A DNA stretch of 5,939 nt from IMG/VR virus record IMGVR_UViG_3300045988_036540; one strand, 5' to 3'. The notes under the pieces were generated by a model, which was not told the DNA's origin, ran no database searches, and worked only from the letters and a program-made list of their open reading frames with translations. Position 1 is the stretch's first letter, and each line of letters begins with the position of its first letter. A program made the translations under genes and the position numbers. Below are positions 92 to 5,939 of the stretch, in pieces. The DNA is from a virus.

Positions 92-140
92 AAAAAAATA
101 CTCAGCCAAGTATATATACTTGATAGTTACTTGGCTGAGT
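92..140 (-). terminator. Rho-independent terminator ending the phage operon, just downstream of the VP4 stop
   Basis: A perfect 13-bp stem pairs 100-112 (actcagccaagta) with 128-140 (tacttggctgagt), leaving a 15-nt loop. On the minus strand the stem is followed after 1 nt by T7 (plus-strand A run 92-98). It lies 10 nt after the VP4 stop at 151-153. Confidence 0.8.
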
Positions 141-150
141 GACACCAGGG

Positions 151-1170
151 CTAAAAAACGCCCTTTGCTTTGGACATCTTCTTCTTCATGACTGCTTCTT
201 TATCGGCCAGTTGTTCGGCATACCGTTTGTCAGTTTCCATGTTTCTTTCGATTAGGGACGCAATGGCTTTTCCTTGTCGATACTGCTTGATTCTCCACGC
301 CTTTTCAGGATTTTCAGCTTCCAGCTTTCGCCAGTAATATTCTGGAATGGCTGCTCTCTTGCCGTTTGTCAGCTGGATGTACCCAAGTTGCCATAGCCTT
401 TCTTGGTTCTTTTGGAACCATTCGTCTCCGAGTCCTGGCTTTCGGCTCATTACACAGAATGGCGGTATGAGCCCCATTTTCTTGTACCTGTCTTTGTCGT
501 TTCCGTACAGCTTCTTGGTCACATATCCAGCTACGTAGTTATACGTTTCTGGCGTTGCTTGAGCTATGTCAACCGTTCCTTGTCCCCAGACTTTGACTAG
601 TTTGTCGCTTGTGTAGTGTCCAAACCTTGATAGCCTGTGAATTGGCTTTAAGTCGTCTGGATACCACCCGTATAGTATCATGTGATAGTGTGGTCTTGAG
701 GTGTTGTCTCCATACTCTCCGGCTAAGAAGTATCTGAGAGGCTCTCTGACGGCCTTTCTAAGCCTTTTCATGAATAGTTGGACATCCTCCACGCTTAAAG
801 TTTGCACTGTTCTAGGACGCTCTGAGGCGTCTCTCCATACGTTCACGCCTCCCTTGAAGATTTCCCCTGTTTCTGTGTCCTGTGTTGGTACGTGTTCGTC
901 ATCATAGGTCAGTGTGATGAACCAGATGCTTTCCTTGTCGTGGCTGTATGCTTCCAGCTCCATCCGCGTAGCCCAGTCTTTGCGCTTGCGCAGCTTGCAT
1001 CCTGTGCATTGTCCACATGGAATCATCATTACGTCCTTGCGGTACATCAGGTCTTCATACTTCATGTTGGTCTTATGGCTCGCGTTAAAAGAAGCGAGTG
1101 AGTATACTCGCCCACTCGCTTCCCTGTCGTGAGGTACATAAAACCGGATTAACGGTTTGTTACACCCCAT
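151..1170 (-). CDS. VP4: Replication initiation protein (HUH rolling-circle endonuclease), Microviridae VP4 / phiX174 protein A family, 339 aa
   Basis: Motifs read in the translation: FITLTY (RCR motif 1), PHYHMILY (HUH motif 2), YNYVAGYVTKK (motif 3, two Tyr separated by 3 residues as in phiX174 A). The N-terminal MGCNKPL and the CGQCTGC Cys cluster are typical of gokushovirus VP4. ATG at 1168-1170 is preceded by GGAGGT (1174-1179), and the SD overlaps the VP2 stop. Confidence 0.95.
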   Translation of the reverse strand: MGCNKPLIRFYVPHDREASGRVYSLASFNASHKTNMKYEDLMYRKDVMMIPCGQCTGCKLRKRKDWATRMELEAYSHDKESIWFITLTYDDEHVPTQDTETGEIFKGGVNVWRDASERPRTVQTLSVEDVQLFMKRLRKAVREPLRYFLAGEYGDNTSRPHYHMILYGWYPDDLKPIHRLSRFGHYTSDKLVKVWGQGTVDIAQATPETYNYVAGYVTKKLYGNDKDRYKKMGLIPPFCVMSRKPGLGDEWFQKNQERLWQLGYIQLTNGKRAAIPEYYWRKLEAENPEKAWRIKQYRQGKAIASLIERNMETDKRYAEQLADKEAVMKKKMSKAKGVF

Positions 1171-1171
1171 T

Positions 1172-2050
1172 TTACCTCCAATAATTTCCGGTTGTTCCCA
1201 TGCCGATTGTTTGCCTGCGGCCTCTTTCGAGATTTCCCGCGGCTTCCCTTCTTACTTTGTCTTGGACAGGTAGGGCCGCAAGTTTTTCTTTCAGATTAAT
1301 CGCTCCGTCTACTGCCGCTCCGGCAATGCGCTCCATGTCGCCCCTGAGTCTCACAGGGTTCGTGCTACTCGACATGATAGCCTGCTGTATGCTCTCTGCC
1401 GCGCTTTCGGCGTGGCTCCATGCTTCACTGTGACTGCTCCAACTGCCGTCTTGTTTGATGCCCGGTAATGCTGTTGCGCCCAGTGCGCTACTGGATGCCA
1501 TGCCCATGCTTGCGCTTCCGATTGTTCCTTGTGCTCCGCTCGGAGTGCTTGCCCCGCCCTGAGTGTATGCCAAGATAGGATTGATTCCTGCTTTTCGCAT
1601 GTCCTCGACAGCCCTTTGATACGCAGAATTGCTCATCTGCTCTTGCCAAGCTCTGTTCTTTGCCGCTTCGGCTGAGTTGAATCTCATTGCCGTCTGTTGC
1701 TCGATATGATTGTATACGCCTTGCTGGATTGCTCCTAATGTGTTGTAGCCCATCTGCATAAGCATAGAATTCTTGTTGAATTTTTGCTGTGCTCCCATGT
1801 TGGCTTGACTCAGTGCGTTTGCAATGCTCGCGATCTCTTTATTGACACTGTCGTTCGTGCCGCCGTTGCTGAAACTCCCGCTGTTGCTACTGCTCTGCAT
1901 CCAGCTACTGCCGCTACTTTGGCTACTGGCCTGTCCCTGCTGTCCGTAACCGCTTGTGCCGAATAATTTACTTGCGGCCGCTCCTGCGATGCTAGGTATT
2001 GCGTTTAGTGCTAGTGATTTGAAGAATGGTATTAATGCCGCTAATGCCAT
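1172..2050 (-). CDS. VP2: Minor capsid / DNA pilot protein VP2, 292 aa
   Basis: Start taken at the internal ATG 2048-2050 (MALAALIPFFKSLALNAIPSIAGAAASKLFG...), not at the ORF-track start 2359, which lies inside VP1. It has a hydrophobic Gly/Ala N-terminus, a Ser/Gly/Gln-rich low-complexity stretch, and the segment MSNSAYQRAVEDMRKAGINPILAY that I recognise as the conserved core of microvirus VP2 proteins. The position between VP1 and VP4 is canonical. Confidence 0.88.
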   Translation of the reverse strand: MALAALIPFFKSLALNAIPSIAGAAASKLFGTSGYGQQGQASSQSSGSSWMQSSSNSGSFSNGGTNDSVNKEIASIANALSQANMGAQQKFNKNSMLMQMGYNTLGAIQQGVYNHIEQQTAMRFNSAEAAKNRAWQEQMSNSAYQRAVEDMRKAGINPILAYTQGGASTPSGAQGTIGSASMGMASSSALGATALPGIKQDGSWSSHSEAWSHAESAAESIQQAIMSSSTNPVRLRGDMERIAGAAVDGAINLKEKLAALPVQDKVRREAAGNLERGRRQTIGMGTTGNYWR

Positions 2051-2090
2051 AATAAAATAGCCCGGGGTTTTGCCCCGGGCTTCCCCCTTT
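2051..2090 (-). promoter_or_regulatory. VP1-VP2 intergenic GC hairpin with T-rich tail (terminator/attenuator-like), plus an upstream purine-rich SD-like element
   Basis: Minus strand reads TAA G AAAGGGGGAA GCCCGGGG CAAAA CCCCGGGC TATTTTATT ATG. The 8-bp all-GC-flanked stem pairs 2060-2067 with 2073-2080 around a 5-nt loop, followed by a T-rich run ending at the VP2 ATG. AAAGGGGGAA is at 2081-2090. Confidence 0.65.
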
Positions 2091-2091
2091 C

Positions 2092-3795
2092 TTAGTGATG
2101 GTCTACGAGACCCGGAATGCTGTACATTGGCATCGGTCTTACAGATGTATTGTCTATGATGGTGTCCATGATAAACTGCGGCTCGTTGTCCACGGCCAGA
2201 GTTCTCTGAATCTCGGAGTCTCCTTCCTTCATCCATGCTTGGCTCAGGCTCGGAGTCTCTTTGTAGTTGTCGCCGTAGTGCCAGCTGTCCAAGGTTCCCG
2301 CTGCATTCGAACGGAACTTGCCGCTGATGCGGTTTGGCTTCATTCGGTATTCTGCCCATGCTTCTTGATAGCCGAATGCCTGTTCATCAGTGCTCGTACC
2401 AGTGAGATACAGCTCCTTTTTGAGAATTGCTTGCTCTCCCAGATTTGCGAAGACCGGGTAATAGAAGTCCAGATTGGTTTTTCGGCTCCACATTCGTTCG
2501 AGTCCCTGCTGATAGGTGTGGTCATGCCGGATGCAACACACTCCGATAACATAGCCGTGCTCCTCGAAACTCTTTGTGAACATACTGCCGTTGTACGGTG
2601 TAACGCTCACGGCTGCGGTGTTGCCCTGCGGACTCTCTGCGGTCGTGCCGCTGGTCTGGATGACCTGACTCATGTTGATAGTGATACGCGTACCACCCAG
2701 ATATTCCGGAATCTGCACAGTCTTGTCCGAAATCTTGGTGTGGAATAAACTGTAAATCATCTCGCGGTAGCGGCTACCGCCTCGTGCTAACTGCTCGTAG
2801 TACTTCTGCACCTGAAATGCCTGTCTCAGCTGATTGATGGTTGTTGCTGTTGCGGTGGTCATATCAGCTCCAATCTCTATTTCTCTGTTTCCGTCCGGTG
2901 CTCCGTCTGCCGTCCCCAGAATTCCACTTCCGTAATAAAGGCCGTTTTCTCCCTTGGTTTCTGCTTGGACGCTTATGTTTGTGATAAGGTGGTATTCCGA
3001 GCTATTGGTAGTCCATCCGAGTTTATTCGGCCAGTTGTTCGGGTCGTACAGATTGAGATGTGCCACCCCTGTCGTCGGTACTTTTACCGGCTCTCCCGCT
3101 TTCTGAGGGGAAGGCAAAGCCGATGTGAAGTAGTCGTGGTACTTATTTACCGGCAGCGGTCTGCCGCCTGTGTATGCGTTCTGAAGGATGTACTCAAGGT
3201 TAGGCGTTTTTGCGTCCATGCCCTTTGCTTCATCATCCGTATAGTTTACGGTTGCGTCTGTGGTGCTGTTGATTGCCGGATTGTCCACGTTCTGGTCGCG
3301 GAACCACTCCTGCCAAATCATAGCGTAGGCTCTGAATGGTAATGCATTTACGCTGAATGCAGTATCAGCTCCTTTGCTCACCTTGGTAGGAATGCCCATG
3401 TAGTCCATGATGCTGCCCTCATAAGGTGCCGGTTTTTCTGCCGTTCCGGTCACTTTGACCTGCGGAATTGTGTATTCCTGAGTCTGTGCCCACGGTCCGG
3501 TGTCGTTTTCGCCCATGAACCGCTTGAAATGGTCCCAGATGATACGACAGGGAACATTGAAGTAGTATATATCCATATGGCAGTTGTCCATAACCGGGAA
3601 GATAGGAGTTGTCATGCGGATAATTGCTGCCTGGTCAATGCTGAAGGTATCACCCGGGAGCACTTCATCCACGTAGAACGGAATAAGCTGGCCCGCGTTC
3701 ATCGTCAACTTGACGTCCTGCCGCCGTTTGAAGCGACTTCGCGTAATGTCCAGCCTCGGAACCTGATTAAACCCTGCGTCTTTGTTTCTGTTCAT
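2092..3795 (-). CDS. VP1: Major capsid protein VP1 (Microviridae F-protein family), 567 aa
   Basis: The N-terminus has the characteristic microvirus capsid signature: FNQVPRLDITRSRFKRRQDVKLTMNAGQLIPFYVDEVLPGDTF. The length is typical for gokushovirus VP1. GGAGG at 3806-3810 lies 10 nt upstream of the ATG. The ATG (3793-3795) overlaps the VP3 TGA (3792-3794) as ATGA. Confidence 0.97.
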   Translation of the reverse strand: MNRNKDAGFNQVPRLDITRSRFKRRQDVKLTMNAGQLIPFYVDEVLPGDTFSIDQAAIIRMTTPIFPVMDNCHMDIYYFNVPCRIIWDHFKRFMGENDTGPWAQTQEYTIPQVKVTGTAEKPAPYEGSIMDYMGIPTKVSKGADTAFSVNALPFRAYAMIWQEWFRDQNVDNPAINSTTDATVNYTDDEAKGMDAKTPNLEYILQNAYTGGRPLPVNKYHDYFTSALPSPQKAGEPVKVPTTGVAHLNLYDPNNWPNKLGWTTNSSEYHLITNISVQAETKGENGLYYGSGILGTADGAPDGNREIEIGADMTTATATTINQLRQAFQVQKYYEQLARGGSRYREMIYSLFHTKISDKTVQIPEYLGGTRITINMSQVIQTSGTTAESPQGNTAAVSVTPYNGSMFTKSFEEHGYVIGVCCIRHDHTYQQGLERMWSRKTNLDFYYPVFANLGEQAILKKELYLTGTSTDEQAFGYQEAWAEYRMKPNRISGKFRSNAAGTLDSWHYGDNYKETPSLSQAWMKEGDSEIQRTLAVDNEPQFIMDTIIDNTSVRPMPMYSIPGLVDHH

Positions 3796-5511: not shown

Positions 5512-5540
5512 ATTGTATCATATTTTCGGAAAAAAGTCAA
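5512..5540 (-). promoter_or_regulatory. Sigma70/SigA-type promoter with extended -10, driving the whole minus-strand gene block
   Basis: Minus strand reads TTGACT (5535-5540), a 17-nt spacer TTTTTCCGAAAATATGA, then TACAAT (5512-5517). The TG one base upstream of the -10 gives a TGnTACAAT extended -10. An A/T-rich UP-like stretch (CTCAAAAAATC) lies directly upstream. The first ATG is ~28 nt downstream of the -10. Confidence 0.8.
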
Positions 5541-5579: not shown

Positions 5580-5619
5580 GTCATGCGTTAGGCGCGGTGC
5601 GCCGTACGAAGAGCATGAC
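5580..5619. other. Nested GC-rich hairpin in the noncoding region, ~40 nt upstream of the promoter -35
   Basis: Outer 7-bp stem pairs 5580-5586 (gtcatgc) with 5613-5619 (gcatgac). Inner 5-bp stem pairs 5591-5595 (ggcgc) with 5599-5603 (gcgcc) around a 3-nt loop. It sits in a GC-rich island (5581-5650) within otherwise AT-rich noncoding DNA. Confidence 0.6.
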
Positions 5620-5658
5620 GTGACTTTCCGGCCAGCTGCCGAACTGCCTCTAATTGAG

Positions 5659-5835
5659 TTTTCAACACTTTCAACACTTTCAACAGGTTTTCCACAAAAA
5701 GTTGCACAAATGGTTTTGTGCATATTGCTACACTTTCAACAATTCAACAAGTTTTCCACAAAATTATCAACATTAAAATTAGTCACAAAATATCGTTTCA
5801 ATGATAGAAATTCATAGTATTCAACATTTCAACAC
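5659..5835. repeat. Iteron array: eight same-orientation TCAACA cores plus two copies of GTTTTCCACAAAA (DnaA-box-like core TTTTCCACA)
   Basis: TCAACA occurs at 5662, 5671, 5680, 5736, 5744, 5767, 5821 and 5829. The first three form 9-bp tandem units (TTTCAACAC, TTTCAACAC, TTTCAACAG; 5660-5686). GTTTTCCACAAAA occurs at 5687-5699 and 5751-5763. Confidence 0.9.
5703..5722. other. Perfect 8-bp hairpin (tgcacaaa / tttgtgca, 4-nt loop) centred between the two halves of the iteron array
   Basis: 5703-5710 tgcacaaa pairs with 5715-5722 tttgtgca; the loop is 5711-5714 (tggt). It is flanked by the direct repeats CACTTTCAACA..GTTTTCCACAAAA at 5675-5699 and 5731-5763. Confidence 0.75.
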
Positions 5836-5840
5836 TCCCT

Positions 5841-5939
5841 ACTACTACGACTACAACAAGTAAATAATAATATAATAAAAATCGTGCGTGCATGTGCGCG
5901 ATTACGTGCGCGTGCGCGCGCTGATAAACCTAAAAAAAT
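5841..5939. repeat. Terminal redundancy, copy 2 (identical to 1-99)
   Basis: Same comparison as copy 1. Confidence 0.95.

Follow-up and report, generated by a model that had tools for sequence, protein, structure and literature searches.

The noncoding region of a gokushovirus genome, IMG/VR virus record IMGVR_UViG_3300045988_036540, carries an array of about ten 9-bp repeats that, judged from sequence, are very probably host-type DnaA boxes set within a module resembling the basal unwinding system (BUS) of bacterial chromosome origins. The window analysed here is the whole record, 5,939 nucleotides, and the module extends from position 5659 to 5882. The module likely serves, though this is a less certain claim, as a DnaA-dependent duplex-opening origin element written in the host's own box dialect, acting on the double-stranded replicative form and having a role in the initiation of replication. 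Microviridae are the textbook case of rolling-circle replication, for which these phages are considered to require nothing beyond Rep and the elongation and priming factors of the host. The present findings suggest that a rolling-circle phage also recruits DnaA, the chromosomal initiator of its host. What is new is the presence of a known chromosomal element in an unexpected replicon that brings no initiator of its own for it.

In published work, the BUS consists of DnaA boxes, mostly as a tandem pair, followed by at least three DnaA-trios within 16 bp and then by an AT-rich region (PMC8287927). The trios read 3′-NAN-5′, with 3′-GAT-5′ being the most frequent, and tandem boxes are the most frequent arrangement. 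The duplex opens when box-bound DnaA-ATP oligomerises along the trios, which it contacts as single-stranded DNA (ssDNA); in Firmicutes, DnaD then recognises TnnT repeats on the opposite strand (PMC8287927, PMC10201434).

The window begins and ends with an exact 99-bp direct repeat (positions 1-99 equal 5841-5939). It therefore represents one complete, circularly permuted circular genome of 5,840 bp, and because of this redundancy the trios, the AT tract and the GC hairpin each occur twice in window coordinates. Every gene is on the minus strand, and the noncoding region runs from 5541 across the junction to 150. The module and its immediate flank are made up of the following parts:

5659-5696, plus strand: box cluster 1, four head-to-tail boxes (TTTTCAACA at 5659-5667, CTTTCAACA at 5668-5676, CTTTCAACA at 5677-5685 and TTTTCCACA at 5688-5696).
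5703-5722, between clusters 1 and 2: an 8-bp perfect palindrome, TGCACAAA-tggt-TTTGTGCA (-8.1 kcal/mol, z -3.79).
5733-5772, plus strand: box cluster 2 (CTTTCAACA at 5733-5741, AATTCAACA at 5741-5749, TTTTCCACA at 5752-5760 and TTATCAACA at 5764-5772).
5818-5834, plus strand: a tandem box pair beside the unwinding element (TATTCAACA at 5818-5826 and ATTTCAACA at 5826-5834).
5835-5838, plus strand: a GC-rich 4-nt spacer, CTCC, from the last box to the first trio; this is the commonest spacer in the phages.
5839-5860, plus strand: the DnaA-trio block CTA CTA CTA CGA CTA CAA CAA G, giving 3′-GAT-5′ on the minus strand and TnnT repeats on the plus strand.
5861-5882, repeated at 22-43 through the terminal redundancy: a 22-nt A/T-only tract, TAAATAATAATATAATAAAAAT, the presumed duplex-unwinding element.
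5883-5925 (= 44-86), plus strand: an alternating (CG/TG)n imperfect palindrome, for which a long hairpin containing G.T pairs is predicted on the box strand alone.

The sequence features of a BUS are present in order: tandem boxes in one orientation, a short GC-rich spacer of 4 nt, three consecutive CTA triplets (5839-5847) and a fourth (5851-5853) that place 3′-GAT-5′ trios on the opposite strand, TnnT repeats and an AT tract. The junction itself reads ATTTCAACA-CTCC-CTACTACTACGACTA...-TAAATAATAATATAAT. A BUS of this kind, with DnaA boxes 6/7, DnaA-trios and an AT-rich region, is known from B. subtilis incC and its homologues; it was reportedly described by Richardson in 2016 and is treated in Pelliciari 2021 (PMC8287927) and Winterhalter 2023 (PMC10201434). 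The phage element differs in its setting, the 5.8-kb genome of an ssDNA phage that encodes an HUH Rep, where VP4 lies to one side of it and the small-ORF (open reading frame) block to the other; it is also compressed to about 225 bp and has both an added CTACAACAAGTTA extension and a flanking (CG/TG)n hairpin. Because it is not beside dnaA or dnaN, it is a BUS-like module rather than a chromosomal oriC.

A preliminary description of this DNA, made from the letters alone, had noted eight TCAACA cores in one orientation, 9-bp tandem units, a repeated 13-mer and several matches or near matches to the relaxed DnaA-box consensus TTWTNCACA, and all of its sequence statements are correct. TCAACA occurs on the plus strand at 5662, 5671, 5680, 5736, 5744, 5767, 5821 and 5829, and nowhere else on that strand. 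With four scattered copies on the minus strand, the genome holds 12, against 4.07 ± 1.82 expected, and 0 of 200 shuffles reached that number. Tandem Repeats Finder returned TTTCAACAC in 2.9 copies at 5660-5685; the 13-mer GTTTTCCACAAAA starts at 5687 and 5751, 64 bp apart; exact matches to TTWTNCACA occur only at 5688 and 5752; and TTATCAACA (5764), TTAGTCACA (5779) and TTTTCAACA (5659) are each one mismatch away. Enrichment for that general consensus is weak when one mismatch is allowed (17 matches versus 9.85 expected; 6/200 shuffles). The sequence TTTTCAACA, also allowing one mismatch, gives nine matches in the whole genome against 1.99 expected (0/200 shuffles), all of them on the plus strand within 5659-5834, and a tenth, weaker copy is present at 5741-5749.

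All of these repeats belong to one family, TTTTC(A/C)ACA, in which the TTTTCCACA copies are a minority variant. Alignments of relatives show orthologous box positions alternating among TTTTCAACA, TTTTCCACA and occasionally TTTTTAACA, so the "iterons" and the "DnaA-like boxes" of the preliminary description are the same element: the repeats were real, and their division into two classes was not. Its limits of 5659-5835 also proved too narrow, as the feature continues past 5835 through CTCC, CTACTACTACGACTACAACAAG and the 22-nt A/T-only tract to 5882 (the part beyond the junction being equal to 1-43). A coding role for the ORFs that cross the array (49 aa on the minus strand; 65 and 40 aa on the plus strand) was considered and rejected, since they translate the repeats and indels in relatives are not multiples of three. 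The occurrence of the same DNA in the intergenic oriC of hosts also speaks against it.

Much of the case rests on where else the boxes occur. A search pattern built on the triple box of cluster 1, TTTCAACA-N-TTTCAACA-N(1-4)-TTTTCMACA, matches more than 120 IMG/VR contigs, nearly all of them microvirus-sized (5.3-6.2 kb), and it also matches more than 120 bacterial contigs. Nearly all of the bacterial matches listed are Oscillospirales; those named include Oscillospiraceae, Ruminococcus, Ruminococcaceae, Acutalibacteraceae, Butyricicoccaceae, Subdoligranulum, Gemmiger, Faecalibacterium, Caproiciproducens and Hominimerdicola, together with a few Thermotogota. In 26 listed loci the pattern is located between dnaA (product of about 450 aa) and dnaN (product of about 368 aa), in a single orientation throughout, and a Pfam search of one example locus identified Bac_DnaA, Bac_DnaA_C and three beta-clamp domains. 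The dnaA-dnaN spacer is the classical site of the unwinding region in Firmicute oriC.

The spacers themselves carry the phage's box. When the selected pattern match was masked first, the most frequent 9-mer in the 26 dnaA-dnaN spacers was TTTTCAACA, with 64 copies, and all 31 copies of CTACTACTA were on the dnaA-sense strand. Fifteen of the 26 have a box, a GC-rich spacer of 3-4 nt, (CTA)3-5 and an AT-rich tract, as in TTTTCAACA-CCCC-CTACTACTACTACTA-TTTTATAAATAG; the spacers between box and trios include CCCC, GCCC, CTC and CACT, and a counterpart of the tandem pair, TTTCAACA(N3)TTTCAACA, is found directly ahead of the trios. The Oscillospirales dnaA-dnaN spacers share both box dialect and spacer length with the phage module. 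Each member of the phage pair at 5818-5834 is within one mismatch of the box that dominates these spacers, and base frequencies by box position are near-identical in host and phage (at position 6, A 0.86 and 0.89, C 0.11 and 0.11, respectively). The phage box is not the canonical TTATCCACA but the commonest 9-mer of the host spacers. The DnaA proteins of these hosts (L133-L248; e.g., L167, 219-1580) carry (D/N)HST(M/I) in the recognition helix of domain IV, where B. subtilis and M. tuberculosis DnaA have DHTTV, and such an altered helix fits a non-canonical, lineage-specific box of the form TTTTCAACA.

The triple box was also seen directly upstream of mraZ in seven Oscillospirales loci (among L154, L189, L202, L203 and others) and, as large arrays, beside groEL in the Thermotogota Athalassotoga and Mesoaciditoga (L141, L158, L192, L215 and L216 among the loci). 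Two simple routes by which phage and bacterial copies might be related were rejected. A prophage origin of the bacterial matches is contradicted by the near absence of microvirus genes: only one of the 120 listed loci has them, and it is a free 5,840-bp contig in a 'Prevotella' metagenome-assembled genome (MAG). Nor is a recent transfer from a particular host supported, because phage-host similarity is confined to motif stretches of 20-39 bp, which argues for functional mimicry or an old capture instead. The free contig (L234, CALBJK010000280.1) is a complete gokushovirus genome whose array is 96.7% identical to that of the window over 5660-5750, with VP4 at 49% and VP1 at 55% identity. Its place in that MAG is probably a binning artefact and not evidence of a host.

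Conservation among the phages extends beyond the boxes to the rest of the module. By megablast, the genome groups with gokushoviruses of human, monkey and pig gut (best match KT264789, 81.5% identity over 86%), and six otherwise unalignable gokushovirus genomes align to the window at 5658-5774 only, with 85-89% identity. Most window positions from 5659 to 5866 show at least 90% conservation across 98 distinct phage variants, a level also reached by cluster 2, the tandem pair and the CTA block, though they are outside the search pattern. The distance from first to last box start is 158-160 bp in 90 of 97 genomes, in which VP4 is 32-97% identical (median 55%) and VP1 38-92%. AT-rich tracts follow the trios in the phage relatives as well, and at least three trios within 16 bp of a box are found in 97 of 121 phage segments. 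Repeats and spacing alike are thus conserved across gut gokushoviruses when the noncoding regions are aligned, a check that the preliminary description had proposed. The same holds in a motif-blind set, in which genomes were picked by VP4 similarity and not by DNA motif: most genomes of 5.2-6.2 kb have 6-12 clustered boxes, and the box-spacer-CTACTA-trio arrangement is present in 43 of 58, compared with 1 of 1,160 shuffled genomes. A search for relatives seeded with a single VP4 returned the query only.

This fixed geometry bears on the first alternative, that the boxes are a DnaA sink or regulator which titrates host DnaA, like datA or DnaA-box clusters, or couples phage transcription to DnaA-ATP, without any unwinding or origin role. 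With some ten boxes on every copy, a multicopy replicative form could titrate DnaA effectively, the occurrence of the bacterial triple box away from oriC, upstream of mraZ, is consistent with DnaA acting as a transcription factor, and a phage promoter is located about 120 bp from the array. A sink, however, needs boxes only, whereas here the conservation, at a fixed distance, is equally strong for the tandem pair, the 4-nt spacer, the CTA trios and the AT tract, which is the signature of an unwinding element. The position of the module relative to promoters, moreover, differs between clades. A purely titrating or regulatory array is accordingly judged unlikely.

The module also keeps its form when turned around. 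Boxes are antisense to the genes in 76 genomes, which form the window's clade (VP4 41-97% identical) and in which the module follows VP4. A second clade, with 30 genomes (VP4 mostly 32-40% identical to the window's), has them on the coding strand, and there the module is placed between VP2 and the start of VP4. In every case the AT-rich side faces VP4. Coding-strand AT skew is similar in the antisense and sense groups (0.33 versus 0.37, and 0.48 versus 0.49 at VP1 four-fold sites). The idea that the second clade packages the opposite strand found no support, as coding-strand AT and GC skews are equal in both orientation classes.

The module is not confined to gokushoviruses. A 39-kb tailed-phage-like contig (L059, IMGVR_UViG_3300045988_134603), with tail genes and a 916-aa tape-measure-like ORF, has 11-12 TTTTCAACA boxes plus TTTCAACC-GCCC-CTACTACTA-AT-rich at about 6700-6900 on the reverse complement, and neither VP1 or VP4 nor dnaA or dnaN was found in the stretch examined. 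Large box clusters were likewise noted in L084, L124, L040 and L113. Other small, unrelated microviruses (4.0-4.6 kb) have tandem boxes of the canonical type. For example, L387 carries three TTATCCACA boxes at 126-170, including the tandem TTATCCACATTATCCACA, followed by TTACTACTA and an AT-rich stretch just upstream of VP4, while L583, L496 and L566 have TTATCCACAggTTATCCACAggTTACTAACAG in common, in either orientation. These cases suggest that DnaA-box modules occur in several microvirus lineages with a lineage-dependent type of box, as would be expected if the box follows the host. A looser pattern, TTATCCACA-N(3-5)-CTACTA, matched mostly unrelated large contigs.

Both sets of observations bear on a second alternative, in which the repeats are Rep-binding iterons of a rolling-circle double-strand origin, with VP4 binding them and nicking nearby, perhaps at CTACAACAAGTTA. 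Rep proteins that bind repeats are well known, including RepB on the 'bind' repeats of pMV158 and the geminivirus and circovirus Reps on their iterons, and direct repeats beside a nick site are normal in rolling-circle replicons. It also speaks for this view that the AT-rich side always points toward VP4 and that the microviruses carry an extension of their own. The end of the trio block, CTACAACAAG, belongs to this microvirus-specific extension, which reads CTACAACAAGTAA at window positions 5851-5863 and CTACAACAAGTTA in most relatives. Its core, CTACAACAAGT(T/A)A, has a conservation of at least 88% whichever way the module is oriented, whereas neither host oriC nor the copy in the tailed phage contains it. 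The extension resembles the phiX174 gpA site, CAACTTG/ATATTAATAAC, and is a candidate VP4 site; if it is one, the packaged strand would differ between clades. Against Rep iterons, the repeats stay the same even where VP4 identity is as low as 32-35%, no other 9-mer is as frequent in the host dnaA-dnaN spacers, and a tailed-phage contig without VP4 has them too. Furthermore, the inversion of the module relative to the coding strand in one clade, with coding-strand skews unchanged, is hard to square with a strand-specific nick site. Rep iterons are an improbable explanation of the array. In comparison with the pMV158 bind locus, the geminivirus and circovirus iterons and the phiX174 gpA origin, the phage array likewise has direct repeats close to a Rep gene and to a sequence that is AT-rich or nick-like; it differs in showing no covariation with Rep, in its likeness to host oriC, in its Rep-free occurrence in a tailed phage and in its independence of orientation.

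A third alternative is that of a single-strand origin, in which DnaA or another primosome factor would recognise the incoming viral ssDNA by its array or its TAG trios and so prime the complementary strand; the preliminary description had listed something of this kind among its possibilities, namely DnaA-dependent primosome loading on ssDNA. In the window's clade, the strand with the 3′-GAT-5′ trios is the coding, presumably packaged, strand, and DnaA-ATP binds trios as ssDNA (PMC10201434). As ssDNA, however, the 241-nt region folds no better than shuffled sequence on either strand (z +0.39 and +0.32), and the only stem that is stable there, the palindrome at 5703-5722, contains no box. With every box a direct copy and none inverted, no box would lie in a duplex stem, and in the 30 genomes with an inverted module the trios are on the other strand. 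Such an origin is very improbable. The palindrome itself is followed on the minus strand by a T-rich run and was flagged as terminator-like. In relatives, a palindrome between boxes 4 and 5 is more frequent than in shuffles, with a sequence that differs by clade (e.g., CGTCATTTTGACG).

It is no more credible that the array comprises sites for some other protein, either a small phage protein, as in the operator suggested by the preliminary description, or a host origin regulator whose sites overlap DnaA boxes, such as Spo0A. Many Oscillospirales form spores, the Spo0A 0A box, TGTCGAA, is one mismatch from the unit read on the minus strand (TGTTGAA), and the small ORFs o75 and o63 are conserved in 71 and 84 relatives, respectively; set against this, the 60- and 61-aa ORFs are not conserved (relatives in only 4 and 16 of the motif-selected phage loci, respectively), a tailed phage has the module without these ORFs, and in the dnaA-dnaN spacer of the hosts the 9-mer immediately precedes the trios, where a BUS has its DnaA boxes. 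Taken together, the results on orientation, ssDNA structure, independence from Rep and the small ORFs weigh against a primosome site on ssDNA, iterons specific to Rep and an operator for a phage protein, and favour a host-factor element acting on the double-stranded replicative form. Of the preliminary description's interpretation, what survives is the oriC- or theta-like layout of DnaA boxes and AT tract, unexpected in a microvirus and now matched by the same layout in Oscillospirales dnaA-dnaN spacers.

From this we infer a mechanism for DnaA-dependent opening of the replicative form. Host DnaA-ATP would occupy the ten or so TTTTC(A/C)ACA boxes on the double-stranded DNA and then oligomerise from the tandem pair onto the trios, whereupon the adjacent AT tract would melt. 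The opening, situated beside the Rep gene, could start or assist phage DNA replication by letting the helicase and primosome of the host load (DnaD/DnaB/DnaI-DnaC in Firmicutes), so that the replicative form is amplified in theta mode. Alternatively, or in addition, it could provide a melted substrate for the HUH Rep VP4. A bolder version can be offered only tentatively and is rather doubtful: that a large clade of gut gokushoviruses and at least one tailed phage of the same hosts captured the host's minimal origin-opening module, making the replicative form a DnaA-fired, theta-replicating mini-chromosome. On that version, a 'lytic' rolling-circle microvirus would gain a second mode of replication, coupled to the host cell cycle, together with a persistent state like that of a plasmid.

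Several points weigh against a DnaA-dependent origin element. Why a rolling-circle phage should need DnaA is not obvious when its Rep is intact. Plasmids based on B. subtilis oriC require more of it than the dnaA-dnaN part, so that a BUS by itself may be too little for autonomous theta replication. The bacterial matches, at least 120 contigs, represent a sample of taxonomic spread, and 77 of the 120 listed are not beside dnaA, dnaN, mraZ or groEL within 8 kb. The identity of TTTTCAACA as the Oscillospirales DnaA box is deduced from position and architecture, and the Oscillospirales host of the phage is a prediction from the box dialect. Finally, the cultured gokushoviruses phiMH2K, SpV4 and Chp2 have no box cluster and no trios. 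Their lack of a cluster may also be why the feature has so far gone undescribed: literature searches turned up no account of such an element, whether as DnaA boxes, as trios or as an oriC-like module, in Microviridae, and a search for the bare 9-mer returned unrelated primer matches only.

Mobile replicons that borrow host DnaA are familiar from theta plasmids. The origins of pSC101, F, R6K and P1 oriR combine iterons, DnaA boxes and an AT-rich region with an initiator of their own. The phage likewise has host DnaA boxes beside an AT-rich tract on a mobile replicon. In the plasmids, however, separate iterons serve a replicon-encoded RepA-type initiator, whereas the phage genome has a single box family, no such gene and, as the sole replication protein found, the HUH Rep VP4. 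Another parallel comes from enterobacterial gokushovirus prophages, which, according to Kirchberger and Ochman in 2020, reportedly use dif-like sites for XerCD integration. There too, a tiny phage copies a short chromosomal cis-element in order to use a host enzyme, the pairing being dif and XerCD in that case and oriC and DnaA in this one. No integrated phage copies were seen beside dnaA among the bacterial loci listed.

If the DnaA-dependent reading is right, recruitment of the master initiator DnaA would extend to many of the most common ssDNA phages in human and animal guts. A theta-like or plasmid-like phase would become possible, which is relevant to the old question of how microviruses persist in the gut. 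The minimal BUS known from B. subtilis would prove portable and selected as a unit on mobile elements, and the natural versions of about 225 bp would lend themselves to biochemistry. Oscillospirales would be seen to use the non-canonical DnaA box TTTTCAACA with a changed DnaA recognition helix, and box dialect could offer a culture-free prediction of host (Ruminococcaceae/Oscillospiraceae) for a large uncultured gokushovirus clade.

The genome has the following further features:

151-1170, minus strand: VP4, the rolling-circle Rep (PF23343, E 5e-18), with HUH (HYH) and YxxxY motifs intact; it adjoins the AT-rich side of the module.
2092-3795, minus strand: VP1, the major capsid protein (Phage_F, E 1e-142).
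Elsewhere on the minus strand: VP2, the VP3 scaffold (Chlamy_scaf), VP5 and several small ORFs.
100-141, minus strand: an intrinsic-terminator-like 13-bp hairpin and T-run (z -7 to -8) after VP4, which ends at 151; it bounds the noncoding region.
5512-5540, minus strand: a sigma-70-type promoter, TTGACT-17-TACAAT (with TG), serving the small-ORF/VP5/VP3/VP1 block; the nearest box is about 120 bp away.

A 395-aa ORF at 1172-2359 (minus strand) overlaps the 3′ end of VP1, and its first 100 or so residues are basic and of low complexity. The true start of VP2 is probably an internal Met near 2050 (MALAALIPFF...), in agreement with the VP2 of about 290 aa in relatives. An Rfam scan of the entire window, both strands, gave no match at E up to 1. 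Between array and promoter there is a nested hairpin at 5580-5619 (GTCATGC...GCATGAC around GGCGCggtGCGCC), which the closest relatives retain; more distant relatives have a different GC hairpin in its place. On the other side of the module, the (CG/TG)n palindrome folds at -17 kcal/mol (z -3.05) on the plus strand and at -10.7 kcal/mol (z +0.11) on the minus strand, with the box strand being the more stable in 61 of 87 relatives. Conceivably it forms Z-DNA, a cruciform or a strand-specific hairpin in the opened origin.

A search for other cis-elements common to the coding strands of both phage clades did not locate a Rep nick site and yielded a single non-module DNA 10-mer, AAGGAGGAAG, which is a strong Shine-Dalgarno sequence. 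The coding strand is also strongly richer in A than in T: the AT skew is about 0.3 over the window's whole genome, and the clade averages at VP1 four-fold sites are about 0.5. Both the Shine-Dalgarno 10-mer and the A-rich coding strand fit a Firmicute host.

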